DNA of 64,000 bases, from positions 5,315 through 69,314 of the forward strand of contig CAYYGL010000001.1 of NCBI GenBank assembly GCA_964471235.1. The letters are read 5' to 3'. Made by a program: the position numbers and the translations under genes. Origin of the DNA: an uncultured Calditrichaceae bacterium. Lineage in GTDB: Bacteria > Calditrichota > Calditrichia > RBG-13-44-9 > J075. Position 1 is the stretch's first letter. Each line of letters begins with the position of its first letter. The notes beneath the pieces were generated by a model. It searched no databases. It worked only from the letters and a program-made list of their open reading frames with translations, and was not told the DNA's origin. Shown here piece after piece: positions 31,204 to 47,823 of the stretch.

Positions 31204-31752
31204 CTATTCCTCACTTTCGTCTAAATATTTTCCCGGGTTGCGATTAAAATCCTCGGATTTGCCTTTTGGAATACTCAACGACTCCCAGGCGTCGCCGGTA
31301 AAGTGTTTCGCCAGGAAAACGATTTGTCCCACATGGTAAGCATAGTGAGAGAGCTGTCGAAGCAGCGCCTGGCTAACCAACAGCGGCTCCCCGCGAATGG
31401 TGATGGTACGGCTTAAATCCGCTGGCGTCAATGTTTCCAGGGTATTGGTTAGAATTTGCCATCCGGTTTCCCATTGCTTATGGAGGTTGTTAAAATCATC
31501 ATCTTGGGTAATTTCAAACTCCATATCCCGGTGACGATCCGGCTTCTCACCGTCGGTAGTAAGAAAATCGCGCCAGCGGGATCGCATATTGCCGGCAAGG
31601 TGTTTCATGATCACCGCAATCGAATTGGATACCTCCTCATTCAGGGAGTCGAACATCTCTTCAGTGTTTACCTGGGATATCGCTCCATCTGCCAGTTGAC
31701 GCAGCCGGGAAAATTCCCGACGAATATCGGTTAAGAATTGCTCCAGATTCAT
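31204..31752 (-). CDS. DinB-like/DUF1572 family protein, translationally coupled to the upstream helicase
   Basis: HYAYHVGQIVFL C-terminal motif, as in the 20367 paralogue. Its ATG overlaps the helicase TGA (ATGA) at 31749-31752. Confidence 0.55.
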   Translation of the reverse strand: MNLEQFLTDIRREFSRLRQLADGAISQVNTEEMFDSLNEEVSNSIAVIMKHLAGNMRSRWRDFLTTDGEKPDRHRDMEFEITQDDDFNNLHKQWETGWQILTNTLETLTPADLSRTITIRGEPLLVSQALLRQLSHYAYHVGQIVFLAKHFTGDAWESLSIPKGKSEDFNRNPGKYLDESEE

Positions 31753-34121
31753 ATTTTACCTCCGGTTGGTTTGTCGATAACGGGCAGGGATTTCCGTTTG
31801 TGCAGGGGCACTCCCTGCGAGTGAAATATCGTTATCTGTTGTGTATTGAATTCCAGCAAATAGTGTTGAATGATTAATTCCGCAAGATGTTGAATTCTTT
31901 CCACATCGGAAAAAGTGTTGATAGTCAACTGTTCCGGTAGGGCATAAATTTTTTGCCCGTCGGCTTTTAATATTTTTGGCAAAATCTCCGGATGGATAAT
32001 GAGATGATACAACTGCTGGGCAGATTTAAAGCGCAGTGTTTCCAGGTAAAGGCGATCCCAATCCACCACATCCCAGATATCTTTGTTGACAGCGACCGGT
32101 TTTGCACGGGATACTCCGGAGTTTCCTACTCCCTCTGATGTGATTTGTGAAAAAACCGGACGGATATCAACCCGGAGCTTTTTCAGGATGTTATTGTTCA
32201 CGGAAACTTCTACTGCCGGTGCGTTCCCGTTTTCTGAAGAAACAGGTGGTGTTATTGCCGGCTCCAAAGCAGGTGTGGAGGATGTGCCGGGTCGATCCGT
32301 TCGCTTATCTCTTCCGTTTGTCTGAATCCCTTCTTTGACAATGGCGTTCAAAAAGGCGTTCATATAATCTGCGTTCAGTCCGTAAATATAAAGTGTTTGT
32401 AAGCAGGCGATTTCCGGGCGGGCAGTGGCTTCTCTCCTCAGAGAAAAATCTTTTCCTTTCAGGCGAACCCCTCTACCGAATAGCTGAATAATCTGGGGAC
32501 CTTCTCCTTTTCCCATGTTCATCAATACCATGGTCGAGACCCGCCAGCTATTCCACCCTTCGATAAATTTTTTTGCACCGATAAGCAGGTTGATGGGAGA
32601 ACGGGCAGTATTGATATCCTCAAACAGGGAGGCGGAAAAGTAATCCGGTTTCACCTCGATTCCATTGCTTGCCAGCAGTTTTTTGAGCGGCGCAACATTT
32701 CCAACATGGATAATGCCGAAATAATTCCCGGCTCCGTTGGTTTTCAATCCTAATTCTCCATCGCCATGTAAAATTTCGTAAACTTCAAGTTCCCCGCTCC
32801 CATGAAATACCAGCCGGAATAACTTCTCCTGTTGTGCCTGCCGATCATCCGCTGGGGAATTAAGCAAGTCACCCACAGGGAGATTTGCCGGTATCGCCGA
32901 TAGAATCCATTGGATGTGTTCCCATAATCGCCCCGGATCATGAAGAATTTTTTTCGGGGACATCGTGATTGAGAGGATGTCGGAATCCTGCTTTTTTCCC
33001 GCCACCCGGCTGCCCACAAACACCCAGAGAGGTTTCTCAAGCTGGTAAGTGTTTATATCGATTTCTCCGGACTGAAAAAGGGAAAGCTGCCGGTAAAAGG
33101 TTGACAGTGCCCCGGACAGCACCCCCTGTTGCACTTCCGGTGTGTAGTGATCTTTATGAAGGTTCACCGCCTGGAACGCCTTGCCATACCTGTCTTCATA
33201 GAAAAAACGGTAAGAAAAATCAAAAATAATGGATTTGGCATATTCCGAGAGTAGAAAGCTATTCTTGCCGATTACCTGGGCAAAAGTAGCACTGTATTCG
33301 ATAATTATGCCCTGGGTTGCCAGTTTTTCCCGCAGGGTCTTCCAGCGTTTTTCCTCGGATTTCTGCCCCTTATGCCCCTCATCGATGAAAATGAGGTTTT
33401 TCCCTTCAAAAGCCGCGACATCCACCCTTACCCCGCCGGAAAGTTTTTGGTCCATCAACTTGTGAATGTCGATGACCAATACCTCATTTCGGCGGGTATA
33501 AAGGTTGTCCGGGTTGCCGTCATATAACTTTGCTGGTATGCCGCTCAGTTGATACTCCTGCCAGTGTTGACGGGACATACCTTCGTTTGGGGTGATCAGC
33601 AAAATATTATCCCAGGTGAAAGGGGTATAGTGCAGCACCTGCCAGTAGTTGATGTGCATAATCAAAGTTTTACCGCTGCCGGTTGCCATCCAGTAGGCAA
33701 TTTTGTGTAGGTCCGGTTCATGAAATGGCGGAATTGACTGCGAATGACGTCGATTAAATTCTTCTAAAAACAAATTTAAGTCGGATAAAAAGCCGGAGAC
33801 ATCGGTAAACAACCGGTCAAAATAGATTTCGCTGAACAGGGCTGCCAACTGCTGGAAGTATTTCAATCGGAATTGGGGTTGTTGACGATTGGCGCGCAGA
33901 CGGGATTGGTAGGAGTCAATCGATTGTTGGTAGTTGAATAATTTTTCCGGTGATAGTTTAGAACGCCCGCTTTGTTGTAAAGCATCCCAGAACGTATCAT
34001 GGAACTTAACGGATGAAACAGGGGAGGGGAGAGGGAGTATTGCTCTCAGGCGAGCAAACTCATCCACCCCGAGTAAATCCAGGAAAAAATGAAACAGGAC
34101 CAGGTGTTTTTGTAATTTCAT
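31749..34121 (-). CDS. SF2 helicase, ResIII-type (type III restriction Res-subunit-like) with DEGH box
   Basis: Motif I WMATGSGKT, motif II IFIDEGH, motif III YSATF, and motif VI QLFGRGVRL. It has a ~145-aa N-terminal and ~240-aa C-terminal extension without an obvious PD-(D/E)xK motif. Confidence 0.75.
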   Translation of the reverse strand: MKLQKHLVLFHFFLDLLGVDEFARLRAILPLPSPVSSVKFHDTFWDALQQSGRSKLSPEKLFNYQQSIDSYQSRLRANRQQPQFRLKYFQQLAALFSEIYFDRLFTDVSGFLSDLNLFLEEFNRRHSQSIPPFHEPDLHKIAYWMATGSGKTLIMHINYWQVLHYTPFTWDNILLITPNEGMSRQHWQEYQLSGIPAKLYDGNPDNLYTRRNEVLVIDIHKLMDQKLSGGVRVDVAAFEGKNLIFIDEGHKGQKSEEKRWKTLREKLATQGIIIEYSATFAQVIGKNSFLLSEYAKSIIFDFSYRFFYEDRYGKAFQAVNLHKDHYTPEVQQGVLSGALSTFYRQLSLFQSGEIDINTYQLEKPLWVFVGSRVAGKKQDSDILSITMSPKKILHDPGRLWEHIQWILSAIPANLPVGDLLNSPADDRQAQQEKLFRLVFHGSGELEVYEILHGDGELGLKTNGAGNYFGIIHVGNVAPLKKLLASNGIEVKPDYFSASLFEDINTARSPINLLIGAKKFIEGWNSWRVSTMVLMNMGKGEGPQIIQLFGRGVRLKGKDFSLRREATARPEIACLQTLYIYGLNADYMNAFLNAIVKEGIQTNGRDKRTDRPGTSSTPALEPAITPPVSSENGNAPAVEVSVNNNILKKLRVDIRPVFSQITSEGVGNSGVSRAKPVAVNKDIWDVVDWDRLYLETLRFKSAQQLYHLIIHPEILPKILKADGQKIYALPEQLTINTFSDVERIQHLAELIIQHYLLEFNTQQITIFHSQGVPLHKRKSLPVIDKPTGGKI

Positions 34122-34289
34122 CGCAAGCTTATATCATCATTCGGATAATTATAACTTTATGTCAATTCGATATAAAAAAATAGAACGCGGATGGACCCGG
34201 ATGACCCGGATTTTCGCAGATTTTTTTGATATGATAACCAATCATCCATGTAAATCATCATTTGGGTTCTATGTCAAGTTACGTCGAAC

Positions 34290-35111
34290 TCACGTTAACT
34301 TATTTAAAAGCCAATCGCCCAGGAATTTGTCAAGTGTCATTTTGTGCATCTCATTATATCCAAACAAAATTCTCTGTTCCTTGCGATGGGGGTCGAAGAA
34401 TGCCGGCGAGCGCACCGCTAACTTTCTCTCCTGCATAAAATTGTAAATATAGCAGGTGGTTGTGTCCTGTTCCGGTAAAAACATCAGGTAAAAGCGAAAA
34501 TTTTTCAGCATCTCCGGGTTAACAATATCCGTAACAATTTCCCGAAACGAAAGATATTGCCCATGCCCGATGCTGCCGCCTCCCTGAGTATAGAGCTTTT
34601 CTTCCAGCAATGTCAACCGATTATCGGCTTCGTGAAAAATCAGAAAATCAATGTCAGTGCTGGCAACCCTGCCGTACATATTCAGGCGTAAAAATTTGCT
34701 TAATGACGATACCCGGGCACTTTCCCTGATCGTTGCGGTGCTGGGTTGCCACTCTTCTTTGCCATCACACTTTAAGACTTGTAATAAAAATTTTGCCAGA
34801 TGGTCCGGATTCTCAAATGACTTTTGGGTGGCGGCTTTTAAGCTTCGGATATGGATTCGGTCCTCTTCCCAGAAGATGTTTCCCAGTCGCAATCCAGCGG
34901 TAAAAAATGGTGCTATCTGCAGTAAGGCATTGTCCTCAAACTCCCTCTCACTCTTACATTCTTTCAGCAAAATATATCGGGAAGCCGGATTCGGATTAAT
35001 CCGATGGAGGCAGGTGGCAAAGAACAAATTGCGAAAAATCCGAAAGTCAAAAATTGCATTCAAACGACTGGGACGGGTGCCATAAATTTCATCTTTTACC
35101 GGTTTTGCCAT
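34290..35111 (-). CDS. Hypothetical protein (273 aa), first gene of the AT-rich block
   Basis: A long ORF co-directional with its neighbours. It is AT-rich with no recognised motifs. Confidence 0.45.
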   Translation of the reverse strand: MAKPVKDEIYGTRPSRLNAIFDFRIFRNLFFATCLHRINPNPASRYILLKECKSEREFEDNALLQIAPFFTAGLRLGNIFWEEDRIHIRSLKAATQKSFENPDHLAKFLLQVLKCDGKEEWQPSTATIRESARVSSLSKFLRLNMYGRVASTDIDFLIFHEADNRLTLLEEKLYTQGGGSIGHGQYLSFREIVTDIVNPEMLKNFRFYLMFLPEQDTTTCYIYNFMQERKLAVRSPAFFDPHRKEQRILFGYNEMHKMTLDKFLGDWLLNKLT

Positions 35112-35175
35112 GTATTAAGTTGCGTTTGTTGCTGTTAAATAGATTTTGAACACTACATTACTTATGTAAAAATTT

Positions 35176-35709
35176 TTAAGTTAAATTGGGTACCCAAACT
35201 GAAAAATATTTTAGCCTAAAGTCAATATCCATTTTTATTCCGGCATCCACAAGGCAGTTAATACCTAATATGGGGCGCGCTTCTTTCCATTCATTACGGT
35301 AAGAATGATTGAAAATAGCTGCTCCACCATTCACATCAATGCGATAAGGATAGTTAGCAAAATTAGGCAAATTACTGCACAACCAGAGCGTTAAATCACG
35401 CGTGGGTTTTCGAGTCATGCTGCCATCCGAAAGTTCTACATCCACGAGACCGCCGATAGGACCACTGAGTGAAATACCTACTTTCGAAAGAGTCTCCTTT
35501 GTTATAATGGCATGGCTACAACCGGTATCGATCATAAATTCTATTGCCGGGGCTCCCATGGGAGGTGTATCAACAAATGGTTCGGAAATGAGCATCAAAA
35601 CCCGAATTTCGTTAAAAGATTTAAGGGATTGGTCACTGGATCTGAATTTAGCAAATGGCATTTTATGAATAAACAAGTTCATGATCTTATCCCTCCTGGG
35701 TGACAACAT
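35176..35709 (-). CDS. Retropepsin-like aspartic protease (clan AA, single-lobe, presumably dimeric)
   Basis: The catalytic FMIDTGCSHAII (hydrophobic-hydrophobic-D-T-G-S) and the downstream ILGINCLV match the retroviral-protease ILGxDxL flap/closing motif. 177 aa. Confidence 0.6.
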   Translation of the reverse strand: MLSPRRDKIMNLFIHKMPFAKFRSSDQSLKSFNEIRVLMLISEPFVDTPPMGAPAIEFMIDTGCSHAIITKETLSKVGISLSGPIGGLVDVELSDGSMTRKPTRDLTLWLCSNLPNFANYPYRIDVNGGAAIFNHSYRNEWKEARPILGINCLVDAGIKMDIDFRLKYFSVWVPNLT

Positions 35710-36382
35710 TTATGTATCTCCGTAAGTCAAGAGGAGGAGGTAATGGTTCAATTCGTCTTACCAAAATTTCATTCAAATTATAATTTTCTTTTTTTAAGAC
35801 TTTATATATTTCTTTTTTTGACGGTTCAATAGCTATTCGAGATTCTCCTCGGTAGGCTACCCATTTACCGGGTGCGGTTTCCATAAGCAATGGAAGTTCT
35901 TGTTGAAATTTTTCCCATCCGATTGATTGGAATTCAGATAGTAACAACGTATCGAACCGTTTTGTGATACGTTCTATCGTAAAATCGATGAGTCGATCTA
36001 TCTCCCGGGTTTGAAAAGGGGGAGATTCTTTAACTTGTTTTAATAAGTTCAAATCTTCAACTTCACCACATTCACACATCCACCACAGCGAAGCAATGAA
36101 ATCTTCTTCTGTTGCCGGAGAAACTAAATCTAACCGGCGAGTGAGCTTCTCATAAGTGAAGGGAATAATATGCCATTCTTTTTCAATTTTTTGCCATTCG
36201 TTATTGCTGCAATGTTTGGCGCTGTGAATTATGCCTGAAAGGCAACTTCCGATTAATGTGGCGACCTGGCGTTCGAAGTCCAATTCTTTTTCCGGAAGGA
36301 TATATTTTTCGCTTACTTGGATTGCCTGATGAAGATTGCTAAAGAGTTCCTGAACTCCCGGGGGGTTATGAAGTGAGATCAT
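35687..36382 (-). CDS. Hypothetical protein (231 aa) overlapping the retropepsin-like gene start by 23 nt
   Basis: The ORF shows operon-style overlaps on both sides. It has a Cys-containing segment WWMCECGEVED and no recognised family. Confidence 0.45.
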   Translation of the reverse strand: MISLHNPPGVQELFSNLHQAIQVSEKYILPEKELDFERQVATLIGSCLSGIIHSAKHCSNNEWQKIEKEWHIIPFTYEKLTRRLDLVSPATEEDFIASLWWMCECGEVEDLNLLKQVKESPPFQTREIDRLIDFTIERITKRFDTLLLSEFQSIGWEKFQQELPLLMETAPGKWVAYRGESRIAIEPSKKEIYKVLKKENYNLNEILVRRIEPLPPPLDLRRYINVVTQEG

Positions 36383-36384
36383 TT

Positions 36385-36804
36385 TTATCTTTTTCCCTTC
36401 TCATTTTTGTTTAATATGTTGTTAATCTCTTCAACCAACTCAAACTCTAATAAGTTTATTTTTCTGAAGAACCAACAATTTTTTTCTGTATAAAATTTCT
36501 CAGCGATGTTCGGATCAGCTACATGGGTAAAAATAATCACCGGAAGAGTTTTATTAACCTCCCTGATTTTTTCATAAAAACGAATTCCGGTACGAAATCC
36601 CATCTGTGTGTCATCCAGGTTAAAGCTCTTTCCTGGCGGCATCATAATATCCAAAATTATTAACTCAATTCTTTTAGAATGTTCTGTAAGAAAATAAAGA
36701 GCATCATCCACATCCGTGCATAATTTAACTGAATAACCGGACTCTTCCAATTCCATAATATAGTTCTCCATTCTTCTTTTTTCGTCATCAACGAAAAGTA
36801 TCAT
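36385..36804 (-). CDS. Stand-alone response-regulator receiver (REC) protein
   Basis: ILFVDDE and LIILDIMMP (phospho-acceptor Asp) and a conserved T and K further on. 139 aa, no output domain. Its start overlaps the kinase stop by 17 nt. Confidence 0.75.
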   Translation of the reverse strand: MILFVDDEKRRMENYIMELEESGYSVKLCTDVDDALYFLTEHSKRIELIILDIMMPPGKSFNLDDTQMGFRTGIRFYEKIREVNKTLPVIIFTHVADPNIAEKFYTEKNCWFFRKINLLEFELVEEINNILNKNEKGKR

Positions 36805-39800
36805 GGGGGAACTCCTTTAATCTTTTGGGAATTAAAACATGAAATTCGGTTGGCTTATACCGGTTTTTTAAAATTAAATCCCCCCCCAACTCCTGCATTG
36901 TTTTTTTAGCGATTGGTAATCCCAATCCAGTGCCTGCCACATCTTTATTTATCGCTTCCGGCGTGCGATAACCTTCTTCAAAAATTTTTTCTTCATAACT
37001 CTTACGAATCCCAATACCCCAATCTTTAAACTTGATAATATAATACTCCCGGTCTTCATCTAAATCAATTCGGATCGCAAATTTTTCAGGGTCATCTTCT
37101 GCGTATTTTATCGCATTTGTCAATAGGTTGTGAACAACAGAATTCAATTTGGAACGATTTACGTAAATTTTTATTTTATGGGCATCTTTTACGTTAAAAT
37201 AAATTTTTTTGTAATCAAGCCCCTTACCCACTACCAACGGATTGAACTGCTTAATTGACTTGATGATAATATCACGGTAAACAATGGTGCGTTCCTTTTT
37301 AGAACTCGGCGATTCACCGCCCAGTAAATGTTGTATCTCCTCTATTTTCAATTTTAATATTTCACAATCTGTCAGTATATCATCAAGCTTGGCTTTATAA
37401 AGGTGAGATGGGAGGTTCGGCAACCTTCGTTTTAAGAAAGATGTGTTGCTTCTGATGCCACCAAGTGCAGAATTAAATTCATGTTGAATTTTTTCCAATA
37501 ATAGTTGTCTGTGTTGCTCCAGTGCTTTTACACTATATTCCACTAATCCTTTTAAGATTTGAACATCTCGTTCATAAATATATTTACGATAACCTTTTTG
37601 ATAGCCTGCTTCTACCGTTCCCATGACCTGGTTCTTTTTTGCGGTTGCAATCATCGGAATATAGACTCGTAACAAGCGATCATGATGGAACCGCTTATAA
37701 ATATGAGTATCATATCTTTTGTCATCACTCCCCGGTGCCTCAATTTGTCTATTCCTGACCACATCTGCCTGGATATCGTTACTGTTCAAGGAGTGAATTG
37801 CTAATTGTTTGAAGATTTCTTTTTCTTCATCCGGGATCCCAACCACATATTCAGTTTGAATCCTATTTAGCTCTGGAATGACAAACGAAATGTTTACATA
37901 TTCATATCCCAACGTTTCGGTAATGGCTTTTGAAACAATTTGAACAATTTCAGTTCGGTCACTGGTGCCAACAATCTCCTTCTCAAATTGTGCCATCTGG
38001 GTTAATTTCTGGTCGAAATCTAATTTCTCGAACATAATAGCAGCATGACGGGCTAAAGACCACAAAATCACCTCATCGGATTTGGAAAATGCATTGAGGG
38101 CAGGGCTTTCAATATTCAACACACCAATCGGTTTTGACCCCCATCGAATTTCTTTTCCCACCCGAACTTCAGCATTGGAAATCACTATCGGAACTGCTAA
38201 TTCGGAACGGGTATCATCCCAACATTTAACGTAAATATCCTTCCACTCACTGCTATGGACATTTCCCACTCGGATAGGTCGTTCGGCGGACAAAGCCTTC
38301 CCGGTAATTCCCCGACCTAATTTAAGAGAATGTTTTCGGGGAGGTGAGCCACTGTATTCAACCAGATGTAATAAGCCGGTTTTAAAATCCAGCCGACTCA
38401 CCCAACCTCTTTCCGAGTCTACCAATTTTAATCCTTCATCCAAAACCAACCTCAACAGTTCGTTGACATCTCGTGTTTCTGCCATTTGTTTAATAACTTT
38501 ATTAAGCTTTTGAAACCGGCGTCTGCTGTTTAAATTTTCAATGGCAACCGAGGTCTGTAAAGCCAGGGTTTTGAAAATGTTTTTATGCCATTTGGTAAAA
38601 TGACGTTCATGTTGGAACGAATATACTTCAATAATGCCAATTACTTTTTTTCCATAGGATAATGGCATTGCCAGCATGGATTTCCAACCTAAATTTTTAA
38701 CTAATCTGTAATAAGGATGAGTCTCTATGACACTGGCATCTTCCAGATAGTAAGGTTTGTTTTTCAGTAAAAAGCGGGTTAAACATTTACTATCATTTCG
38801 TAGTACCAAATCCTTAAGGGGGGCTCCCTGCCCTTCCGGGATACTGTATTCTGAAACTACGAAACCATCTTTATTCTTATCATGTAGCCACACAATACAG
38901 ATTGGTTCGCTCATCAAATCTTGGGTTAAATTCACCACCTTTTTTAATAATACATCCAATGATTCTAAATGAGTCATCAATTCCGGTAGCTGGAGCAATA
39001 TATCGTTTAGCATGGCTTGCTCAATCGCCAGAGCTACTTTCTGAAGCACTTTTAGTAGGGATGGAAAATCATCCGAGTTAAAAGCATCCGGTTTACTTTT
39101 TCCTACACTCACCGTAGCAATAACAGCATCTCCTGACTTGATAGGAGCACAATAAATTGAATCACCAATATTAAACCCGCCATATTTGGGGTCAGTGGAA
39201 GCATTGCGACAGTAATAAGGTTTTTTAGTTTTTGCAACATATCCTGCAATACCCTTTTCTATAGGAAACGAATGTTGAATTTGAGTGCCAATCCGGGGAT
39301 ATATGGCTTTAAGTTCCAGTCGATTGGTGGCTTTATTCCAAATTCTCAAACAACACGAATCGGCGTTGGTTATTTTTGCACAAGTTTCGACAATTCGGCT
39401 CAGCTTTTGCTGAAATTCCCCGGCATCTACATTTTCATAAGAGATTTCAGCGGAAGTATCTAACAATTGAGATTGGTATCGTAAAATTTGACTTTCGCGC
39501 ATTAATTCGGCTTTCTGGATTGAGAATGCAGCGTGATTGGCAAAAATACCGAATAATTCCTTTTCCCAAACTTTAAAATGGCGTTTGGTTTTGGTATATA
39601 AATTAAGCATGCCAATTAACTTCTCTTCTCCAAACCACATTGGGGCACTCAAAAGCGATATCCAACCTCTCTGTTTTGCTTCGCGAGGATGACTATACAT
39701 AGAGTTCGGTTTGGTAACGTCTTCAAGATACCCAACTTTTTTACCGGTTAAATGTTGTTGAATCCCTGGAAAATGAATATCCAATTCCAGTTGTTTATAT

Positions 39801-40540
39801 TCTTCGTCCACTTCTCCAGTGGTTGCAACAATCTTCAATTTGGTTAAGCTGGCATCCAACATCCAAATGATACAGATTGGAACGGAAAGTAATTCGGAGG
39901 CTTTTTCAGAAACTATTTGTAAAAATTCATGAGGTGTTAAATTCTGCAATTCACGGGATAATGAATACAATATGCTTAGAGTTCTTTCCAACATTCGTAG
40001 ATAATCAAACCTTTCAATAGTCAACACAGCATGTCTAGCAAAAGATTCGAGAAGATGAATTTCATCCGGGGGAAATTTCTGTAGTGTGTTGGAAAAATGA
40101 TTAAAATAGCCGATGAGATGATTGTCACTTTTTAAAGGGTATGATAAAACTGATTGTAAATCATACCTTACGGCTATTTTGGGATTAGCTACACCTTGAC
40201 CAGATTTTTGTAGATTATACTTCTCTATAATTTCTCCGGAAGCGAATAAATTATAATCAAGAGAAGTCGATTTACCTGATGAACTGTTTGTTCTGGTATT
40301 CCTGAACGTGTAATATGCATATTTTTTAAAATGATTATCAAAACCGGCACAGGCGGCAAGTTTCAAAGTCTTGGTTTCTTGATCAATAAGAATGAGTGTG
40401 CAGGCGTGGGAATGAAGGGCTTTTTTACCCAATTCTGTTAGTCGATTCAGTGCCGACGCTTTATCTTTATATAGAATCGGTACTTTACTTAACTCATTTA
40501 TGAGATCTACAAAATCGATTTGTTGAGTAGAGGTCCCCAT
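36788..40540 (-). CDS. Sensor histidine kinase with multiple tandem GAF domains (about five) and C-terminal HisKA + HATPase_c
   Basis: 1250 aa with repeated GAF-like modules. It carries an H-box (…QHEFNSALGGI…), N-box NLLTNAIKYA, G1 DWGIGI and G2 GTGLGLPI. There is no TM segment, so it is cytoplasmic. Confidence 0.85.
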   Translation of the reverse strand: MGTSTQQIDFVDLINELSKVPILYKDKASALNRLTELGKKALHSHACTLILIDQETKTLKLAACAGFDNHFKKYAYYTFRNTRTNSSSGKSTSLDYNLFASGEIIEKYNLQKSGQGVANPKIAVRYDLQSVLSYPLKSDNHLIGYFNHFSNTLQKFPPDEIHLLESFARHAVLTIERFDYLRMLERTLSILYSLSRELQNLTPHEFLQIVSEKASELLSVPICIIWMLDASLTKLKIVATTGEVDEEYKQLELDIHFPGIQQHLTGKKVGYLEDVTKPNSMYSHPREAKQRGWISLLSAPMWFGEEKLIGMLNLYTKTKRHFKVWEKELFGIFANHAAFSIQKAELMRESQILRYQSQLLDTSAEISYENVDAGEFQQKLSRIVETCAKITNADSCCLRIWNKATNRLELKAIYPRIGTQIQHSFPIEKGIAGYVAKTKKPYYCRNASTDPKYGGFNIGDSIYCAPIKSGDAVIATVSVGKSKPDAFNSDDFPSLLKVLQKVALAIEQAMLNDILLQLPELMTHLESLDVLLKKVVNLTQDLMSEPICIVWLHDKNKDGFVVSEYSIPEGQGAPLKDLVLRNDSKCLTRFLLKNKPYYLEDASVIETHPYYRLVKNLGWKSMLAMPLSYGKKVIGIIEVYSFQHERHFTKWHKNIFKTLALQTSVAIENLNSRRRFQKLNKVIKQMAETRDVNELLRLVLDEGLKLVDSERGWVSRLDFKTGLLHLVEYSGSPPRKHSLKLGRGITGKALSAERPIRVGNVHSSEWKDIYVKCWDDTRSELAVPIVISNAEVRVGKEIRWGSKPIGVLNIESPALNAFSKSDEVILWSLARHAAIMFEKLDFDQKLTQMAQFEKEIVGTSDRTEIVQIVSKAITETLGYEYVNISFVIPELNRIQTEYVVGIPDEEKEIFKQLAIHSLNSNDIQADVVRNRQIEAPGSDDKRYDTHIYKRFHHDRLLRVYIPMIATAKKNQVMGTVEAGYQKGYRKYIYERDVQILKGLVEYSVKALEQHRQLLLEKIQHEFNSALGGIRSNTSFLKRRLPNLPSHLYKAKLDDILTDCEILKLKIEEIQHLLGGESPSSKKERTIVYRDIIIKSIKQFNPLVVGKGLDYKKIYFNVKDAHKIKIYVNRSKLNSVVHNLLTNAIKYAEDDPEKFAIRIDLDEDREYYIIKFKDWGIGIRKSYEEKIFEEGYRTPEAINKDVAGTGLGLPIAKKTMQELGGDLILKNRYKPTEFHVLIPKRLKEFPHDTFR

Positions 40541-40617
40541 GCTAGAATCCTCCTTCGGACTGGGGAATAGCTCAAATAAAAAAGTAGTAAAACTGCATTT
40601 TCCCCATATCCGACCTA

Positions 40618-41397
40618 TCAGTTACCAGGGAAAATTAAAGGTAGTTCAACATTAAGTTGGTTTGTAGTTGTTGAAAACGTACCAACTTTTATCTTAAGCG
40701 AATCAAATTCAAAAAAGACACTTAATCCTTCAGAATCGGTTCCCGTTAAATTCTGATTTGGTATTAATAGATGAAGGGTTAACTTACCCTTTTCGTCAAT
40801 GGAAAATCGTACAATTTGAAAGTGGATGTCACAGTGTGTAATTTCCGTCACGACACGTACTTTGATATGATGGGGAATAAAACATCTATCATCTAAAATT
40901 TTTTCTTTCTGCAAATGATAAATCCTGGCACTTGCTACACGCATTACCGGAAAAGGGGTTGGTTCTACATCAGAGATTGGTTCTACATCAGAGAATAGAG
41001 AGCTTGTAGTAGATTCGCATACTAACCATTTATAAACTTCATGTAATATTTCCCTGGCAGATGTGTCATTTTGTTTTGCGCGGTTTATCAAATCGATTAG
41101 ACTACTTTTTCTTGCTTCGTTTAGTTTTTCAGCCATTTCAATTTGTTCAACTGTTTTTTCCGCAAGTGATTCAATTTCCCTTTGCGAGAAAGTCGGTTCT
41201 TTTTCAGATTTAAATGGCTCAAATAATAACTCGCCTGCAACTTCCGTTTGAATCGCCTTTGCAATCTGTTTTCGAAGTTTCGGATACCTACCAAAATAAT
41301 AATCAATGTTTTTAGATCCACCAGAACGTTTTGCCCTGATGTATTCATCGACGATTTTAGTAATCTTATCAGGTTTATAGACACTATTCCGGCTCAT
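40618..41397 (-). CDS. Hypothetical protein overlapping the sigma-factor stop (candidate anti-sigma / partner protein)
   Basis: The 14-nt overlap with the sigma-like gene is typical of sigma/anti-sigma pairs. It contains a perfect 18-bp tandem duplication (40959-40994, SDVEP repeat) and no recognised domain. Confidence 0.4.
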   Translation of the reverse strand: MSRNSVYKPDKITKIVDEYIRAKRSGGSKNIDYYFGRYPKLRKQIAKAIQTEVAGELLFEPFKSEKEPTFSQREIESLAEKTVEQIEMAEKLNEARKSSLIDLINRAKQNDTSAREILHEVYKWLVCESTTSSLFSDVEPISDVEPTPFPVMRVASARIYHLQKEKILDDRCFIPHHIKVRVVTEITHCDIHFQIVRFSIDEKGKLTLHLLIPNQNLTGTDSEGLSVFFEFDSLKIKVGTFSTTTNQLNVELPLIFPGN

Positions 41398-42388
41398 GTT
41401 TGTCCTGCTTATTATTTCCGATAATAACTTCCTTCTCTAAAAAATTATAAATTTTACGACGAACTAGATGAGCATTTTTCGTATCCCCGGCTATTTGGGC
41501 ATACGTCTTCAAATGTAGGAAATGTTGGGTTGCTTTAGCGGAGGCAGAATTCGTTGAGACCGAGGTAAAAGAAATTACAATTTTTCTATTTGAATATGCA
41601 GAAAACCATTTTTTTTCAAATTCCAGCGCGTTTTTTAATGCTTGGTGGTTCCCGTCTATTACTGGGAATAAGTCTTTCAAATCATTCATCGACAGAATTT
41701 TAGCAGTTCGTAAGGATTGGCAATATTCATCAAGAATATCGGTAATTATAATATCTTGTAATTTTTTTTGAGCTCTCTGTGTCCTTTTGCGAATCGTCGC
41801 TGGGTTGATATCTTGAAACACATAAGCGATTTCTTCATAGGTAAATTCTTCACAAAATCGAAGCAATAACAAACTCCTGTCCTGATGAGGAAGACGTTTC
41901 AGAAAATTATTTAATTGGATTTTTTTTCTATCTTGTAAATCATTATGTACAGTATATGCAAGGGGTTGATTTTCTAACTCCCCCTCAACCATTTCTTTTT
42001 CAATATCCCGATCACGAAAGTTGGGATTATCTAAAGATATTACGATCAGATGTGGTTTTCTTTTTCGGGCGGTAAGGATTTGTTTATTACAAATCCAATA
42101 CAACCATTTCTTAAAATTAGTACCCAACTCAGTTTCGTCTATATCTTCAGGTATAGTAAAAACCTCACGTGCTTTCCATGCCTGAAGAAAAGTCGCCTGT
42201 AATATTTTACTGGTATCAAACTTATCAAATCCTGATCTGGTAATAAAATTCTCCAATTCTGCACCGTATTTTTTAAACAGATAAGCAAAGCACTGTTTGT
42301 CACCTTCCTTAAAGCCCCTAATTATCTCAATTAAGGACATAGGCGTTCTCCAATGTTGTATTTTGATCCACTTGCCTGAACCCCACAT
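41384..42388 (-). CDS. ECF-type sigma-70 family factor with ~130-aa C-terminal extension
   Basis: Region-2-like FLQAWKAREVF and region-4 HTH LLLLRFCEEFTYEEIAYVFQDINPATIRKRTQRAQKKL. The start is possibly at an internal Met. Confidence 0.6.
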   Translation of the reverse strand: MWGSGKWIKIQHWRTPMSLIEIIRGFKEGDKQCFAYLFKKYGAELENFITRSGFDKFDTSKILQATFLQAWKAREVFTIPEDIDETELGTNFKKWLYWICNKQILTARKRKPHLIVISLDNPNFRDRDIEKEMVEGELENQPLAYTVHNDLQDRKKIQLNNFLKRLPHQDRSLLLLRFCEEFTYEEIAYVFQDINPATIRKRTQRAQKKLQDIIITDILDEYCQSLRTAKILSMNDLKDLFPVIDGNHQALKNALEFEKKWFSAYSNRKIVISFTSVSTNSASAKATQHFLHLKTYAQIAGDTKNAHLVRRKIYNFLEKEVIIGNNKQDKHEPE

Positions 42389-42710
42389 CCCTATACCGGG
42401 AAGGCTGTAAATACGTTATTCCTTCCGTGGAGAGTTATGTTTAAAACTCGGTCTGGAAATTACTCATGAAGTATAATGTTATTGTTTTTTTAAAATACAC
42501 TCTTCCCAAAGAAAGAAAAAGAAAAAATACTTTTTACAACTACTTTATAACTATCAACTACTTTTTATTATGTGTGACATATTTTGTAGTATTATTTTTT
42601 TATTTTCCCTTATTCATCTAATCTTAATCCATTTCTGTGGGAATCAGTCCCATCCGTGAAAAATAAGACTATAATTAATATAGAGTATGTAAAATGGGGA
42701 AGGAGCGTAT

Positions 42711-42971
42711 ATGTTCTTAGAAGGTTCATTCAGAAGTTTTTTGGCAGGAAATATTTTTGGGTTGCTTTGGGGCTTCTCCGGTGTTATCGGGAGACGACTT
42801 TTGCAGATTTTTTTTGCTGTCTGTGTAATTGTGGTTATTGTTTTTATTGTTTTTGAGGGAATGGATGATGTCGTAAGTCTTTTCGAGTGGATGTTTGACC
42901 AATTACTAAATTATGTATACTTTGCCATGGGCGTAGTGAATGGTATGTTGATCTCCTATCGGCGCACATGA
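42711..42971 (+). CDS. Possible small hydrophobic protein (86 aa) in the AT-rich leader region, opposite strand
   Basis: Two predicted TM helices. It lies inside a ~700-bp AT-rich non-coding stretch and could be spurious. Confidence 0.2.
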   Translation: MFLEGSFRSFLAGNIFGLLWGFSGVIGRRLLQIFFAVCVIVVIVFIVFEGMDDVVSLFEWMFDQLLNYVYFAMGVVNGMLISYRRT

Positions 42972-43094
42972 AAGTTTGTTAGTTCTAGGTGTTATACTGG
43001 AGTGTGATGGAAGTGTTTTTGCTATCGTAACCTCTTTTGAAATACAATTTTTTCCATTGAGAAATTCCAGAGTTCCAGTCAACAGTATCGCTGT

Positions 43095-45806
43095 TCAAAA
43101 CACAGGCTGACTGCTTTCTTTCATCACTCCTTCAATACTCTCCACACCCGCTAAAGCACAATCGCCATTGATAAAAACACGCCTGTCGGAATATTCCCGG
43201 AGAATGTCGGTAAGAAACTGTTTCTCTGCCTCATAATCCAGGTTGTCTGCCACACGCCAGATTGTGACAACCGGCTGTTCTTGCAGTTTCCCGGTTACAA
43301 ATAAATATCGACGGTTCTGATGGGGGCGAGCAAACACCTGTTCCACCTCTATCCCCAGCCAATTTACAAATGTTTGCACCAGGTCGATTGTGGCGGTTGA
43401 GGAACCCCCGGCGCGGAACAAATTCAACTTGTATTCAAACGGATTGCGCATTCGGTTGATATTCAAAAACGTTGGGCTTTGCCGGGTCTCGCTGGAGAGC
43501 ATATACCGGACGGTGTAGTCCGGCAACTCAGTTAACATGTTCGAAGAATTGCCAAATGTTATGTTTTCAAGCGCATCTTCAAATTGTTCCAATCCCTGGT
43601 AACAGAAAAACCCGCCGCCTTCCCATCCTAAATCCCGGGAAATTTTTCCCGGATCGCCATGCAGCACTTTTTTCATTCGCGGTAAGATGACCGAGTAAAA
43701 ATGCTCTCCCATCTCCACCCCCACCCATTTTCGTTTCATTTTCTGCGCTACGGCAATCGTAGTGCCGGAACCCAGGAAGAAATCCATCACCCATTCCCCG
43801 GGCATGGTGGAAGATTCTATCACACGTTGCAGTAAGGCTTCGGCATTTTCGGTGGCAAAATGATGCCGTTGGGCATACCCGGGAATGTCCAACCACTCAT
43901 TGCCGACCATCTCGCTATCATATAACAACTCCGGCACTCCTTTTATCGTATTCCCGAAGCAATCCACATAACTTTTTTCCGGGTTGATACGCACTTTATT
44001 GCGGGCGATCAGCCGGTCGATTCGCTGCTGAGAAAGCGCCCAGCGGCGGTTCCGCGGGGGATAATAGGTTCTTCCCAGTATTTTCCGGGGACGCTCATCC
44101 TTGCGGGGAAAATGGAGCAGAGGGTACCAGCGCGGGGGGGTCGGGCGTTCCACCGGGTTCGGCTTAAACCGGGGGGATTTGGCATATAAAAACAGAGTCT
44201 CGGTTTTCACGGTAAACTGGGTATCCACCTGCTGTTTTGCCAGGGTGCGATTCACGATAATCTCATTGCGGAAATTATCTTTCCCGAAAAGACGGTCCAA
44301 CATCAAACGGGCATACATGGTTCCATTGTAGTCGCAACGCAGAAACAAGCAGCCATCGGACCGCAGTGATGAATGAGCCAGACTTACCCGGTTCTCCAAC
44401 ATGGTTATCCAGGTGGAATCTTTATACCCCACTTTATACAGGTAATCCGCTTCCTGTTCTTTATTAAAGGGGGGATCAATATAGATGCATTTGATTTTCT
44501 CTTTCAAAAGCGGTGAAATGGTATTTAAGGCAGTCCAGTTTTCACTGTTCCATACGTAACCATCAATGATGTCGGCTAACCGATGGTTTGCTGATAGTCC
44601 TTCCAAAAGCTTTACCTTAAACGACTCATCGAAGAAACGGGTATCAATCGGAAGGTGCTGCCATGTTGGTTGATATAGCAACATTTCCAGTGTTTCCCGT
44701 ACCTCGCTGTCGAAGTGAAAACCGAATAAATCCCGCCATTCCCTTAATTGTGCTGTATTATCGGCAAGCTGTTCTACCACCCACCCCCACAGGTCATTGC
44801 CAGCATAGTGTTGAATGTGGCTGAGGCTGATGACATAATCTGTGCTGAGCACGAAACTTCTTTTCTCCCAGACCTGTTTTTGAAAATCCTCGATTTGCCC
44901 CAGCATTTCAATGACTTTAGCAGCAATGGTATGTACGATCGTTGCCAGATGAAGTTGATAGCGAAGATTGCTCTCGGTCAGAGTGGGGAAATTGTCAAAA
45001 TTGAAAATCTCGGATTTGATATAAAAATCCAATTCGGTTATCAGAAAATTTGCCAGATCCTTGTGGATGAAATAATCCTGTTCATTTTTTCGGGTAAAAC
45101 GGGATAAGTGCTCCGCCAATGTTCTCAGGAAATCATCCGCTACATTGCCGGGTAGGGGGAGTTGGGGGAGTGAGTTTCGAAAAGCTTCCAGAACAGAGGC
45201 ATTGATGTGTTTCTGGGTGATTTTTCCGAAATGCTCCCTCTCCGCTTCTTTCGGGGATCGAAATTCAAAGTAAAAATGAAGTTGGTTTTCCTGAATTTCC
45301 CATGCCGGCCGGGAAAGGAAAAAATATTGTTTATGAGTGCTTTTTATGTTCCCATGAAAAGCCTCTGCCTGCACGATCCGAAATGAGATTTCCCATCCAT
45401 CGTGGGTAAAGCGGTAGCTCTGGAAAAACGGGCTGGATTTAATAAAATACTGATCGTGATTGATCCAGTAGAAGGCAATTTCTTCCCCGTTATAAGGCAG
45501 GATGTACTTATGTTTTTTGCCATAACGCCGTTGGGGAATAAAATCTCCCCCATGATAATAGCGAGAGAAAAAACGAATGAGGTGATTGTAGACCTCGCCC
45601 TCCGGTTCAGCAGCTTTCGGGGCGTCCCGGGTGAGTTTCGGTAAATGCTCCTGAATAAATCCAACCAGATCCTGATTGATAAAGCGCAGAATTTCTTCCC
45701 GCCGATAGCGGATGATTCGATAGATTCCGAAATCCAGATCCGGTTCATTCAGATAGAAAAGGGATTGCAACAGGTTCAAAAATTGTTCTCGGAGAGGTTC
45801 GCTCAT
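43095..45806 (-). CDS. Beta-class N6-adenine/N4-cytosine DNA methyltransferase (type III Mod-like) with 440-aa N-terminal extension of unknown function
   Basis: Motif IV IYIDPPF precedes motif I WVMDFFLGSGTT (beta permutation), with ~240 aa between them as a putative TRD. The N-terminal 440 aa have no recognised motif. 903 aa. Confidence 0.8.
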   Translation of the reverse strand: MSEPLREQFLNLLQSLFYLNEPDLDFGIYRIIRYRREEILRFINQDLVGFIQEHLPKLTRDAPKAAEPEGEVYNHLIRFFSRYYHGGDFIPQRRYGKKHKYILPYNGEEIAFYWINHDQYFIKSSPFFQSYRFTHDGWEISFRIVQAEAFHGNIKSTHKQYFFLSRPAWEIQENQLHFYFEFRSPKEAEREHFGKITQKHINASVLEAFRNSLPQLPLPGNVADDFLRTLAEHLSRFTRKNEQDYFIHKDLANFLITELDFYIKSEIFNFDNFPTLTESNLRYQLHLATIVHTIAAKVIEMLGQIEDFQKQVWEKRSFVLSTDYVISLSHIQHYAGNDLWGWVVEQLADNTAQLREWRDLFGFHFDSEVRETLEMLLYQPTWQHLPIDTRFFDESFKVKLLEGLSANHRLADIIDGYVWNSENWTALNTISPLLKEKIKCIYIDPPFNKEQEADYLYKVGYKDSTWITMLENRVSLAHSSLRSDGCLFLRCDYNGTMYARLMLDRLFGKDNFRNEIIVNRTLAKQQVDTQFTVKTETLFLYAKSPRFKPNPVERPTPPRWYPLLHFPRKDERPRKILGRTYYPPRNRRWALSQQRIDRLIARNKVRINPEKSYVDCFGNTIKGVPELLYDSEMVGNEWLDIPGYAQRHHFATENAEALLQRVIESSTMPGEWVMDFFLGSGTTIAVAQKMKRKWVGVEMGEHFYSVILPRMKKVLHGDPGKISRDLGWEGGGFFCYQGLEQFEDALENITFGNSSNMLTELPDYTVRYMLSSETRQSPTFLNINRMRNPFEYKLNLFRAGGSSTATIDLVQTFVNWLGIEVEQVFARPHQNRRYLFVTGKLQEQPVVTIWRVADNLDYEAEKQFLTDILREYSDRRVFINGDCALAGVESIEGVMKESSQPVF

Positions 45807-45892: not shown

Positions 45893-46693
45893 TTACTCGG
45901 AATCGGATGACGTATCAACCAAATTGTTATCCGAATGCCGGTTTTCCGGGGTAACACGCCGTACCGACAGGGATTCCATATTCCCAATTACAATGTGGAA
46001 AACACCTTGTTCCTGTAATGCCCTTGCCAGTTGGATAGCCCGATTTTCCAGACGAATGTTCTCTACACCGGCAATAAAGAGCACCGTTTGCCAGTTCTGC
46101 CGGAACATTCTGCCCATCCCCCATGCCGTATTGGTAAAATATTCTACCAAAATTTCCTGAGAAAGGGTGCGGGCGTCCGGGAATTTTTTCCGGATTGCCT
46201 GAATAACATTTGGGGTAAATCCTTCAAGGGGTTGATCAACATGCAGGATATTGAAATAATAAACCAGTTGATGCCAGGGAGCGTGTTTTATCCAAGTCGT
46301 GATCTGATTTTTGTCACAAAATATTCGATTGCTTCCATTGGAAACATCATACAGTAGATAGTAATGCTCCGGTAGGCGCTTTTTCAAGTCTGCTACATCG
46401 GAAAAATTAAATCCGATAATCGAATCCCTCTGTACCGCTTTTCCGGCATGAATGACAGGATGCCGGGCAAATTCCTTCCGAAGTTGAGATAATAGAAGGG
46501 AGTTATCCTTACCGATAATCAATTCACCGATGATGGAAAGTTTACGAAATTCAGGGGAGGAAATGATCACCCGTTTTTGCATTCGGGAAATTTCTTCACT
46601 CAACCGATGAATAAGAGATAACCGCTTCTTTTCTCCACAAAAGGCAATGATCCGGCTGTCAGAGTTCACTAAAATACTTCGGTAAAAAAGCAT
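45893..46693 (-). CDS. Hypothetical protein (266 aa) immediately upstream of the methyltransferase
   Basis: A co-directional ORF 86 nt upstream of the MTase with no recognised motifs. Its position is compatible with a divergent restriction-enzyme-like or specificity partner, but unsupported. Confidence 0.45.
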   Translation of the reverse strand: MLFYRSILVNSDSRIIAFCGEKKRLSLIHRLSEEISRMQKRVIISSPEFRKLSIIGELIIGKDNSLLLSQLRKEFARHPVIHAGKAVQRDSIIGFNFSDVADLKKRLPEHYYLLYDVSNGSNRIFCDKNQITTWIKHAPWHQLVYYFNILHVDQPLEGFTPNVIQAIRKKFPDARTLSQEILVEYFTNTAWGMGRMFRQNWQTVLFIAGVENIRLENRAIQLARALQEQGVFHIVIGNMESLSVRRVTPENRHSDNNLVDTSSDSE

Positions 46694-46786: not shown

Positions 46787-47212
46787 TTAAGCATGCCTTC
46801 CTGGCAGCACTTTTAATCCCAGTTCCTGAAAAGAGGCTTTGGTCGTGAATATGTTCCGGATTCGGCGCCGATTCATGAACATATAAGCCGCGTAATCATA
46901 GAGGTTCAAATCCAACTCCGGATGCTTTCTCATCAGTCTCACCGCTTCCCGCTGGGTTTTTCTACCTACCCACAGGATATGTAGGTGTGTTCCGGTATAC
47001 GCTTCTTCAATAGTTTCGTAAAATTTAAAAGCCACCGACAGATTCAGATTGTTTTTCAGGGTGTCAAACGCCATCCCGATAGAAATATTATGGGTAAAAA
47101 AACTGTCACCCTGGTTTAGCATTTGTTGAAATGCTTCTTCAAATACATCATGGTGCTCTGCGGCCGGATTTATCAATTGAACCCAGCCGGTGTCGTCAAT
47201 AAATATCTTCAT
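46787..47212 (-). CDS. vapC: PIN-domain toxin (VapC-like)
   Basis: N-terminal MKIFIDDTG acidic start, ~140 aa. Its ATG overlaps the stop of the upstream AbrB-type gene (ATGA). Confidence 0.55.
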   Translation of the reverse strand: MKIFIDDTGWVQLINPAAEHHDVFEEAFQQMLNQGDSFFTHNISIGMAFDTLKNNLNLSVAFKFYETIEEAYTGTHLHILWVGRKTQREAVRLMRKHPELDLNLYDYAAYMFMNRRRIRNIFTTKASFQELGLKVLPGRHA

Positions 47213-47424
47213 TCCGATTCTGATTTTTGGAGTTTTCCAGCCAGACCAATTAATTGATAAAGGGGATTTTCCGAGAGGATTAAATCCAGGCGCCCGGATT
47301 TAATCTTTTTTATTGACACCTCCACCCGATCCCCCGATTCTAATCGTAATTTTTGCCGCACTTCCTGAGGCAGTATAATGCTTTTATCTTCCTGAATCTG
47401 GGTTACAAACGTTGCAAATTTCAT
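47209..47424 (-). CDS. vapB: AbrB/SpoVT-type antitoxin (VapB-like)
   Basis: A 71-aa product starts at MKFATF with the RBS GAAGGGGA. The swapped-hairpin-like ILPQEVRQKLRLESGDRVEV is typical of AbrB/MazE-fold antitoxins. Confidence 0.55.
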   Translation of the reverse strand: MKFATFVTQIQEDKSIILPQEVRQKLRLESGDRVEVSIKKIKSGRLDLILSENPLYQLIGLAGKLQKSESE

Positions 47425-47823
47425 AAATTCCCCTTCAGTGTATCCACATGTTCCCCTGATCTGAACATCAGGAGATCTCTCCCTGTCCTGACTTATGAAC
47501 ATTCTGAAAAACAAAAAAAATTAGCAATCTTTACTTCCGGTTACAAGACATTTCTATACTTGCAGTTGAATACCTTGTGGGTTCTCATTCGGAACTCAAC
47601 CATTCCATGTCCACACGCAAGAAGGTTGTCCTGGTTAATAAATGCAAAAAAGGAGAGATATTTGAGAAATATATCAACAACCTTACTTTGGATTTGTGAA
47701 CGAGACCAACATACCCCCAGTTGAAAAATGCCTTGGGAATTCATACCAACCGAAGTATCTTCGATAATTAGAAAACAACCACGAGTTTTCCTTGTTTACT
47801 CGGAGTGAGAGGAGAGTAATGAG

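Follow-up and report, generated by a model that had tools for sequence, protein, structure and literature searches.

A low-GC islet with a kinase, a lone receiver, a HEAT-like protein and a retropepsin-like protease in a Type III-like restriction-modification operon of an uncultured Calditrichaceae bacterium

Receiver proteins can gate proteolysis in bacteria, as RssB does with ClpXP for sigma S and CpdR does with ClpXP, and the aspartic protease SpoIIGA activates a sigma factor. Extracytoplasmic function (ECF) sigma factors that are regulated by a C-terminal extension usually come without an anti-sigma factor. Known kinds of element include genomic islets, two-component systems, ECF sigma factors and Type III restriction-modification (R-M) systems; in the last of these, mod and res are each transcribed from a promoter of their own, and read-through is limited (review PMC12707154). 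Here we describe a 64,000-nucleotide stretch of contig CAYYGL010000001.1 from an uncultured Calditrichaceae bacterium (hereafter the window), in which a Type III-like R-M operon is split by a low-GC islet encoding a histidine kinase, a stand-alone receiver, a HEAT-like/DUF5678 protein, a retropepsin-like protease and an ECF-type sigma unit. We consider it probable that the islet was acquired horizontally and that it joins a phosphorelay/proteolysis module to the sigma unit. Three things appear to be new: the four-gene operon, a Type III-like arrangement in which the nuclease has a gene of its own and the clean interruption of an operon by foreign regulatory genes. The islet and the operon that encloses it are laid out as follows.

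45893..46693, minus strand: orf266, at the head of the ancestral R-M unit, no Pfam family
43095..45806, minus strand: mod, Type III-like DNA methyltransferase, 903 amino acids (aa)
35137..43089 (~7.95 kb), between mod and X: low-GC foreign islet, delimited by composition and by gene order in relatives
34290..35111, minus strand: X, PD-(D/E)xK nuclease of the R-M operon, 273 aa, outside the islet
34122..34289: X-res spacer, 168 nt, with a duplicated TTGACATA...AATGATGAT unit and sigma-70-like hexamers
31749..34121, minus strand: res, Type III-like SF2 helicase/ATPase subunit, 790 aa

Base composition sets the islet apart from the rest of the window. In 1-kb windows, GC is ~0.48 (0.45-0.55) on either side and 0.35-0.40 from 35 to 43 kb. 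Set against every non-overlapping 8-kb window, the islet stands out in GC (0.370, z = -13.7) and in tetranucleotide distance (z = 34), and its dinucleotide relative abundance (delta*) of 0.060 is three times the background of 0.020 ± 0.005, the maximum of which is 0.029; the last two measures do not depend on GC alone. GC at third codon positions (GC3) is 0.27-0.38 in the six open reading frames (ORFs) from 35176 to 42388 and 0.53 ± 0.06 in the 49 remaining ORFs of the window; a Mann-Whitney test that took in all seven ORFs in 34.2-43 kb gave p ~1e-4 to 1e-6. By the same measure X (0.50), mod (0.53) and res (0.51) are host-like. These data show that the islet is of compositionally foreign origin. 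A first-pass annotation of this DNA had drawn a foreign, AT-rich cassette of seven co-directional genes from 34122 to 43094. The GC and codon usage comparison that it proposed has now been run, and windowed GC, GC3 and the 8-kb-window z-scores confirm both the GC drop and the foreign composition; all seven minus-strand ORFs are present as it had placed them. Its limits have to be redrawn to about 35137-43089, the 273-aa ORF (X) being host-like in composition, and the 700-bp noncoding region that it placed at the 5' end holds an 86-aa plus-strand ORF (42711-42971), which leaves 322 bp of divergent intergenic DNA. The block does differ in GC from its flanks, its gene set did not turn out to be a core-genome housekeeping operon, and the finding stands in this corrected form.

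The genes on either side of the islet are parts of a single R-M system. Mod matches the PADLOC model MTase_III (E = 9e-143, model positions 6-793 of 816) and Pfam N6_N4_Mtase (E = 1e-31), and a search of PDB sequences matched it to the Mod proteins of EcoP15I and H. pylori. Res matches PADLOC REase_III (E = 1e-97), contains the Pfam ResIII ATPase and aligns from residue 1 to 759-781 with Res of L005, L006, L008 and L014 (contigs with related loci carry L numbers here), so that nothing has been truncated; all R-M ORFs in the window are intact and full length. The only nuclease identified in the operon is the separate protein X, whose family consists of just 14 clusters, one of them from a Calditrichaeota metagenome-assembled genome (MAG). 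Proteins of Calditrichaeota MAGs are 54-61% identical to the R-M proteins, and it is by these proteins, not by marker genes, that the analysis placed the host in a Calditrichota-like genome. A homolog of orf266 immediately precedes mod in L013 (48% identity, E = 3e-85) and in L003 (32%, E = 3e-30).

In the window, mod and res are ~9 kb apart, whereas in relatives only X lies between them. The order mod-X-res recurs in three independent contigs (L006, L007 and L008) with gaps of 5-33 bp or overlaps, and mod and X are 5-15 bp apart in these and in L013; the relatives are distant, with X 42-60% identical. The closest of them, L013 (Mod 61% and X 60% identical), reads orf266-like-mod-X with a mod-X spacer of 12 bp. 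Judged by this comparison, res and mod are two subunits of one Type III-like operon, orf266-mod-X-res, and the insertion site of the islet is between mod and X: on one side the islet adjoins the mod stop codon, and on the other it leaves 25 nt before the start of X. The helicase and methyltransferase, previously taken for mere neighbors of the cassette, are accordingly the Res and Mod of one interrupted system, and the 273-aa gene that had been counted as a cassette member belongs to the flanking operon, given its GC3 and the mod-X-res order of the relatives. In the Calditrichaeota MAG J075, mod is found on L003 (RFIL01000181.1), where LapA/LapB and further housekeeping genes come after it; X-res is found on L014 (RFIL01000029.1) with a divergent glycosyltransferase gene upstream. 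Because the two parts lie there on different contigs with unrelated neighbors, the mod|X junction has been broken independently with the reading frames kept, a split that fits separate mod and res promoters (PMC12707154). We considered L003 as an empty site and rejected it: mod stands at the contig start, with the housekeeping genes after it.

Within the islet, four adjoining genes form a set that recurs in other bacteria.

36788..40540, minus strand: histidine kinase, 1250 aa, five GAF domains followed by DHp (H-box HEFNSAL) and HATPase domains, cytoplasmic
36385..36804, minus strand: stand-alone receiver, 139 aa (Pfam Response_reg, E = 1e-13)
35687..36382, minus strand: 231-aa scaffold protein, HEAT/ARM-like N-domain (~aa 10-145), DUF5678 C-domain (~148-225) and RRIxPLxPP tail
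35176..35709, minus strand: retropepsin-like aspartic protease, 177 aa; probable true start at 35682, giving 168 aa

The kinase has a HATPase_c domain (Pfam, E = 5e-16), an NCBIfam PhoR-type alignment from residue 1003 and the HEFNSAL motif, which was read directly; no membrane segment was seen in its sequence. Its homologs are collinear with it (41% identity over the full length in L018, 44-48% in L009). The receiver gene overlaps the kinase gene by 17 nt, and residues D6, D7, D52, T93 and K115 of its product are invariant in four homologs; in L015, L016 and L018 the receiver homolog lies directly upstream of a gene resembling that for the 231-aa protein (231-like gene). A kinase with an H-box and HATPase domain thus adjoins a receiver with a phospho-acceptor Asp, the arrangement of a two-component system. 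The first-pass calls of a multi-GAF kinase and a lone receiver domain are upheld by Pfam, which finds the five GAF domains, the HATPase and the receiver.

The 231-aa protein at first seemed to be an orphan, since a word-indexed search gave self-hits only, but an exhaustive HMMER search found 217 representative relatives. Its AlphaFold model is confident (predicted local distance difference test score, 93) and consists of six helices in a HEAT-like solenoid followed by a small beta-beta-alpha-beta DUF5678 domain; a Foldseek search of the PDB with this model gave nothing significant. The N-domain also occurs at the N-terminus of HEAT-repeat proteins, of four subtilases and of one TIR protein. 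The C-domain is found by itself in 75-110-aa proteins and also closes a protein with three GAF domains. Among the closest relatives, the RRIxPLxPP tail is invariant.

For the protease, all homologs begin at the equivalent of M10, which places the start at 35682, in agreement with the gene caller. Of the operon-style overlaps described earlier, those of 14 and 17 nt hold, as does a 2-nt gap, and the fourth, of 23 nt, probably arose only because the first ATG was taken as the start. Five syntenic homologs (162-178 aa) share an invariant F-x-x-D61-T62-G63, a G86-G87 pair and LLGxNxLxxAG, which we take to parallel the active site, the flap and the C-terminal GRN segment of retroviral proteases. 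The DTG lies in a single-lobe protein, as the motif of clan AA has it. All 12 PDB matches of the family profile are retroviral-type or retropepsin-like, although weak (E of 0.035 or worse), and ApRick is the best single-sequence match. The earlier call of a retropepsin-like protease is reinforced by the invariant DTG in five homologs and the retropepsin-only profile matches; the family-model matches behind it are sub-threshold, as Asp_protease_2 scored 20.1 bits against a cut-off of 24.3, and gag-asp_proteas and TIGR02281 also fell short of theirs.

The order of the module is kept wholly or partly at four other metagenomic loci, L015-L018, whose GC spans 0.33-0.60. In L018, a GenBank MAG contig of uniformly ~60% GC, all four genes stand in the same order (kinase 41% identical over the full length, receiver 49%, 231-like protein 28% and protease-like protein 34%). 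L015 (GC 0.55) and L016 (GC 0.33) have the receiver, 231-like and protease-like genes, and L017 (GC 0.53) has the 231-like and protease-like genes followed by one for a HEAT protein; the contigs of L015, L016 and L017 end upstream of these genes. At all five loci examined that encode the N+C type of scaffold protein, the protease gene comes next after the scaffold gene. A fifth locus, L009, keeps the kinase, the receiver and a protein with HEAT-like domains, 603 aa long, in which the 231 N-domain occurs twice; a TPR protein follows, and the whole lies in a low-GC stretch beside ~50% GC housekeeping genes. The rhizosphere contigs L010 (1-3034) and L011 carry kinase-receiver-kinase tandems of the same kinase family without scaffold or protease. 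The suggested search for conservation of the retropepsin/231-aa/receiver/GAF-kinase neighborhood thus gave a positive answer. As for the claim that the combination is undescribed, we found no description of the kinase-receiver-HEAT/DUF5678-retropepsin set, which appears to be new, and the claim is supported for these four genes as a conserved part of the combination. On the opposite strand directly past the L018 module lies a 145-aa phage-integrase-family fragment (11293-11730), the only mobility-related gene beside any module copy.

The rest of the islet consists of a sigma unit and the DNA upstream of it.

41384..42388, minus strand: ECF-type sigma, 334 aa (318 by gene caller), with a long linker between regions 2 and 4 (r2 and r4) and a ~120-aa C-terminal extension
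40618..41397, minus strand: partner gene of the sigma gene, 259 aa, the two sharing 14 nt
42711..42971, plus strand: 86-aa ORF divergent from the sigma gene, a possible membrane protein with hydrophobic sequence
42389..42710: very AT-rich divergent intergenic region, 322 bp, presumed promoter region of the islet operon

The identification of an ECF sigma proved correct as regards regions 2 and 4: NCBIfam TIGR02937 (sigma70-ECF) scores 61.6 bits against a cut-off of 42.9, and Pfam Sigma70_r4_2 is above its cut-off, with r2 below. A word-indexed search of 5.8 billion proteins returned self-hits only and no significant relative of the sigma factor. The 259-aa protein had no match in Pfam, NCBIfam, PHROGs, PADLOC or PDB, and no anti-sigma domain was detected in it; it is a candidate anti-sigma factor or regulator. 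A similarity between the sigma C-terminal extension and the 259-aa N-terminus was rejected, as it spans 15 residues with E of ~2. The 86-aa ORF has a weak match to DUF5056 (E = 0.0055, below the cut-off). Region 42389-42710 gave no Rfam match and a promoter scan there no better than chance; sigma-70 promoter and terminator scans were in general at or below chance. Tandem AAAGTAGTTG decamers lie in this AT-rich DNA upstream of the sigma gene at 42555-42564 and 42537-42546, 18 nt apart from start to start, and are a possible operator site. Neither the sigma factor nor the 259-aa protein has a relative at the other module loci examined, including L009 and L018, where the genes upstream of the kinase were tried as homologs of the pair and rejected. 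The islet is therefore a composite of a conserved four-gene module and a lineage-specific sigma unit. This is at odds with the first-pass view of one seven-gene system: the 273-aa gene is an R-M gene, and the sigma/259-aa pair does not accompany the module at any other locus examined.

The domain identities, the conserved catalytic and phospho-acceptor residues and the gene order are direct observations; phosphotransfer, the interactions among receiver, scaffold and protease, and the identity of the substrate are inferred. The most likely arrangement is a phosphorelay whose output is regulated cytoplasmic proteolysis. The GAF array of the cytoplasmic kinase would sense an intracellular ligand and trigger autophosphorylation, after which the kinase would pass phosphate to D52 of the receiver, so that ligand binding to the GAF array would set the receiver's phosphorylation state. 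A receiver without an output domain must act by binding another protein, and the HEAT-like/DUF5678 scaffold is the best candidate target because it is the product of the next gene, the only one to come after the receiver gene in every case. The receiver may bind or release the scaffold, which in turn may gate the dimeric protease or present its substrate, acting as adaptor, inhibitor or substrate itself. The sigma factor, its 259-aa partner and the small membrane ORF would form a second unit, probably driving or tuning transcription of the islet operon; its links to the module, and those of either to restriction, are presumed in the same way. The protease could act on the sigma extension or on the 259-aa partner, although the existence of the module elsewhere without either argues against their being the primary substrate.

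Several observations weigh against this reading of islet and module. The N-domain is a generic HEAT-like scaffold, which leaves adjacency as the sole argument for the scaffold as receiver target. As a universal minimal pair, DUF5678 and protease were rejected, the one stand-alone DUF5678 locus examined having no adjoining protease gene. The kinase-receiver pair precedes other genes in L009 and L010 (for a TPR protein and a second kinase), and the protease is therefore not an obligatory output. All Pfam scores of the protease are under the curated cut-offs. The junction of mod with the islet is seen in the window assembly only, and there is no integrase, tRNA, inverted repeat or significant target duplication to explain how the islet arrived. 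No recombinase domain was found when the islet ORFs were scanned with Pfam, NCBIfam and PHROGs profiles, no tRNA or known RNA family was found near the islet (the only tRNA of the window is at 8.7 kb), and islet DNA had no match in plasmid and phage collections; the absence of an integrase, transposase or tRNA flank that had been noted from the letters alone is borne out by these domain scans and the tRNA search. Terminal direct or inverted repeats were sought, and none was convincing. AACAGC occurs at both edges of the islet (43095-43090 and 35136-35131) and in the L008 spacer, but a shared 6-mer is expected in ~11% of cases for windows of such size (P ~0.11), which is not significant, and we do not claim a target-site duplication.

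With these points counted, a horizontally acquired islet carrying a phosphorelay/proteolysis module and a sigma unit is still the account that we favor. A bolder version holds that the four genes represent an unrecognized signaling class, that of phosphorylation-gated retropepsin cleavage, and perhaps a conflict module that puts restriction under signal control; this we regard as doubtful.

It is unlikely that the islet, or at least the four-gene module, serves in anti-phage defense or abortive infection from within an R-M defense hotspot, with the kinase sensing infection and the protease as effector. The idea draws on the position of the islet inside a defense operon, on the small toxin-antitoxin-like pairs nearby, on the foreign, fast-evolving and patchily distributed nature of the islet and on the integrase-family fragment adjoining the L018 module. 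The 231 N-domain is also fused occasionally to subtilases and once to a TIR domain, but such fusions carry little weight for a generic HEAT-like scaffold. PADLOC-DB v2 gave no system-level match; its matches are generic ones to the receiver and HATPase and a weak 24-residue match around the protease DTG to the candidate PDC-M08B (E = 0.0015), the last of which speaks for the idea. PHROGs likewise returned only generic receiver and sigma matches for the islet proteins, no relatives of the protease family, the kinase or the 231-aa family were found in viral contigs, and there is no plasmid, phage or viral-contig link. The association with R-M is a single case, the L018 module matches its host in composition and has genes for sugar-binding and oxidoreductase proteins upstream, and we found no literature linking retropepsins to anti-phage defense.

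The wider surroundings also speak against a defense role. The outer flanks in the window are ordinary chromosomal, housekeeping genes with small toxin-antitoxin-like pairs among them, and the setting is that of a lone R-M operon, not a large defense island. The defense-island placement suggested in the first-pass annotation thus finds no direct support, given the generic PADLOC matches, the lack of plasmid, phage or viral matches and the housekeeping flanks. The neighboring pair that it called VapBC (46787-47514; 101-aa and 141-aa proteins) is weakly supported, with a sub-threshold MazE/AbrB match for the 101-aa protein and no PIN match for the 141-aa protein. At 52752-53499 there is a HEPN/nucleotidyltransferase (MNT-type) toxin-antitoxin-like pair with GC3 of 0.34-0.41, which may be a second small foreign insertion. 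Farther away, at 26992-28326, an amine-oxidase/FAD-oxidoreductase gene is apparently split into two ORFs (26992-27681 and 27730-28326) through a possible frameshift, pseudogene formation or sequencing error; it adjoins two tandem squalene/phytoene synthase genes.

Quite unlikely, too, is that the islet has been co-opted as a regulator of the R-M operon, with X and perhaps res read through from the islet so that restriction, but not methylation, depends on the ECF sigma and the two-component signal. All genes are co-directional, the protease stop is only 64 nt from the X start with no terminator predicted between them, and the R-M ORFs are all intact and full length, although intact ORFs could simply mean a recent insertion. 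The separate promoters and limited read-through of Type III mod and res (PMC12707154) agree with this idea, and the unlinked yet intact mod and X-res of J075 indicate that separate control is tolerated. However, no ECF-type promoter and no motif common to the upstream regions of sigma and of X or res was found, the four-gene module occurs elsewhere without R-M genes nearby, and res has an unusually long upstream region of its own with sigma-70-like hexamers. This X-res spacer measures 168 nt versus an overlap or a 32-nt gap in relatives, holds promoter-like sites at 34176-34148 and 34165-34136, and may serve res as a promoter or operator of its own. It also contains a GC-rich segment that looks like a hairpin, with a T-run after it. 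Overall, a defense role or a control of restriction is possible but unsupported.

A chimera of assembly or binning, in which the DNA of an AT-rich organism was mis-joined, is very improbable and largely excluded: the compositional step is sharp at both edges, the source is a metagenome-assembled contig and the left junction (mod-islet) is seen only in the window, but two assemblies made independently from different samples (ENA ERZ27262647 and Logan SRR7968113, both spanning the kinase to X and one running 1.1 kb into res) show the islet-X-res junction at 99.96-100% identity, and the two operon halves flank the islet in the correct order and orientation.

The R-M genes of the window and of its relatives show some further peculiarities. 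In the window, a DUF1572/DinB-family gene (31204-31752) shares 4 nt with res at the stop codon of the latter, in the manner of translationally coupled genes; no such gene follows res in L014, the only relative with a contig extending past res. Res of L006 (3870-7337) and L007 (3087-6554) has 1155 aa and bears a GGACT/AIG2 domain, which is gamma-glutamyl cyclotransferase-like, at its C-terminus; it is unusual for a restriction subunit to be fused in this way. In L005 (3152-10810), a relative of 28.5% GC, X is divergent from mod, with a 47-aa ORF between mod and res instead, and a UvrD/PD-(D/E)xK (Cas4-like) helicase-nuclease gene adjoins the R-M genes.

Cytoplasmic retropepsin-like proteases in bacteria are almost unstudied. 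If the account that we favor is true, the operon gives DUF5678 and this protease family their first testable context, wired to a phosphorelay, and the locus is a clean natural case of foreign regulatory DNA inside an R-M operon with all reading frames kept. It would also point to a variant of the Type III-like kind whose nuclease is a subunit of its own (mod-X-res), and the insertion and this layout would both bear on the regulation and rearrangement of R-M systems. The 217 relatives of a seemingly unique protein show in addition that orphan status in word-indexed searches can be an artefact.

Compared with the Type III R-M systems EcoP15I and EcoP1I, the operon likewise has mod before res, an N6/N4 Mod of the Type III class and a ResIII SF2 ATPase in Res. 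The window and its relatives differ in the nuclease, which is apparently a ~270-aa PD-(D/E)xK protein of its own, X, with its gene placed between mod and res, and in having an extra conserved gene, orf266, ahead of mod; in the window, moreover, 8 kb of foreign DNA interrupts the operon. Unrelated genes nested between those for R-M subunits are also seen with PrrC inside the Type I EcoprrI locus. Here, the host is a Type III-like operon, and the cargo consists of signaling genes without a known defense role and is, as the relatives indicate, a lineage-specific insertion.

The sigma factor resembles ECF sigmas with C-terminal extensions, such as ECF41 and ECF42, in having regions 2 and 4 and an extension of ~120 aa. 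Unlike them, it cannot be assigned to a group, having no significant relative, and in contrast to extension-regulated ECFs it has an overlapping partner gene. The protease shares a DTG, a single lobe and a presumably dimeric form with APRc/ApRick of Rickettsia, PerP of Caulobacter, the Rlo enzymes of P. aeruginosa (PMC12239564) and SpoIIGA of B. subtilis. Those enzymes are membrane-bound, periplasmic or secreted, whereas no signal peptide or membrane segment was seen in the islet family, which also differs in its conserved ~45-aa N-terminal extension and its two-component operon setting. The nearest functional parallel would be RssB/CpdR-ClpXP, where receiver phosphorylation controls the delivery of substrate to a cytoplasmic protease as we propose here; the similarity of the islet receiver to CpdR is only that of receivers in general (E = 2e-4). 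Two features set the islet apart from that pathway: its protease is a small retropepsin-like aspartic enzyme instead of an AAA+ machine, and a HEAT-like/DUF5678 protein would stand between receiver and protease.

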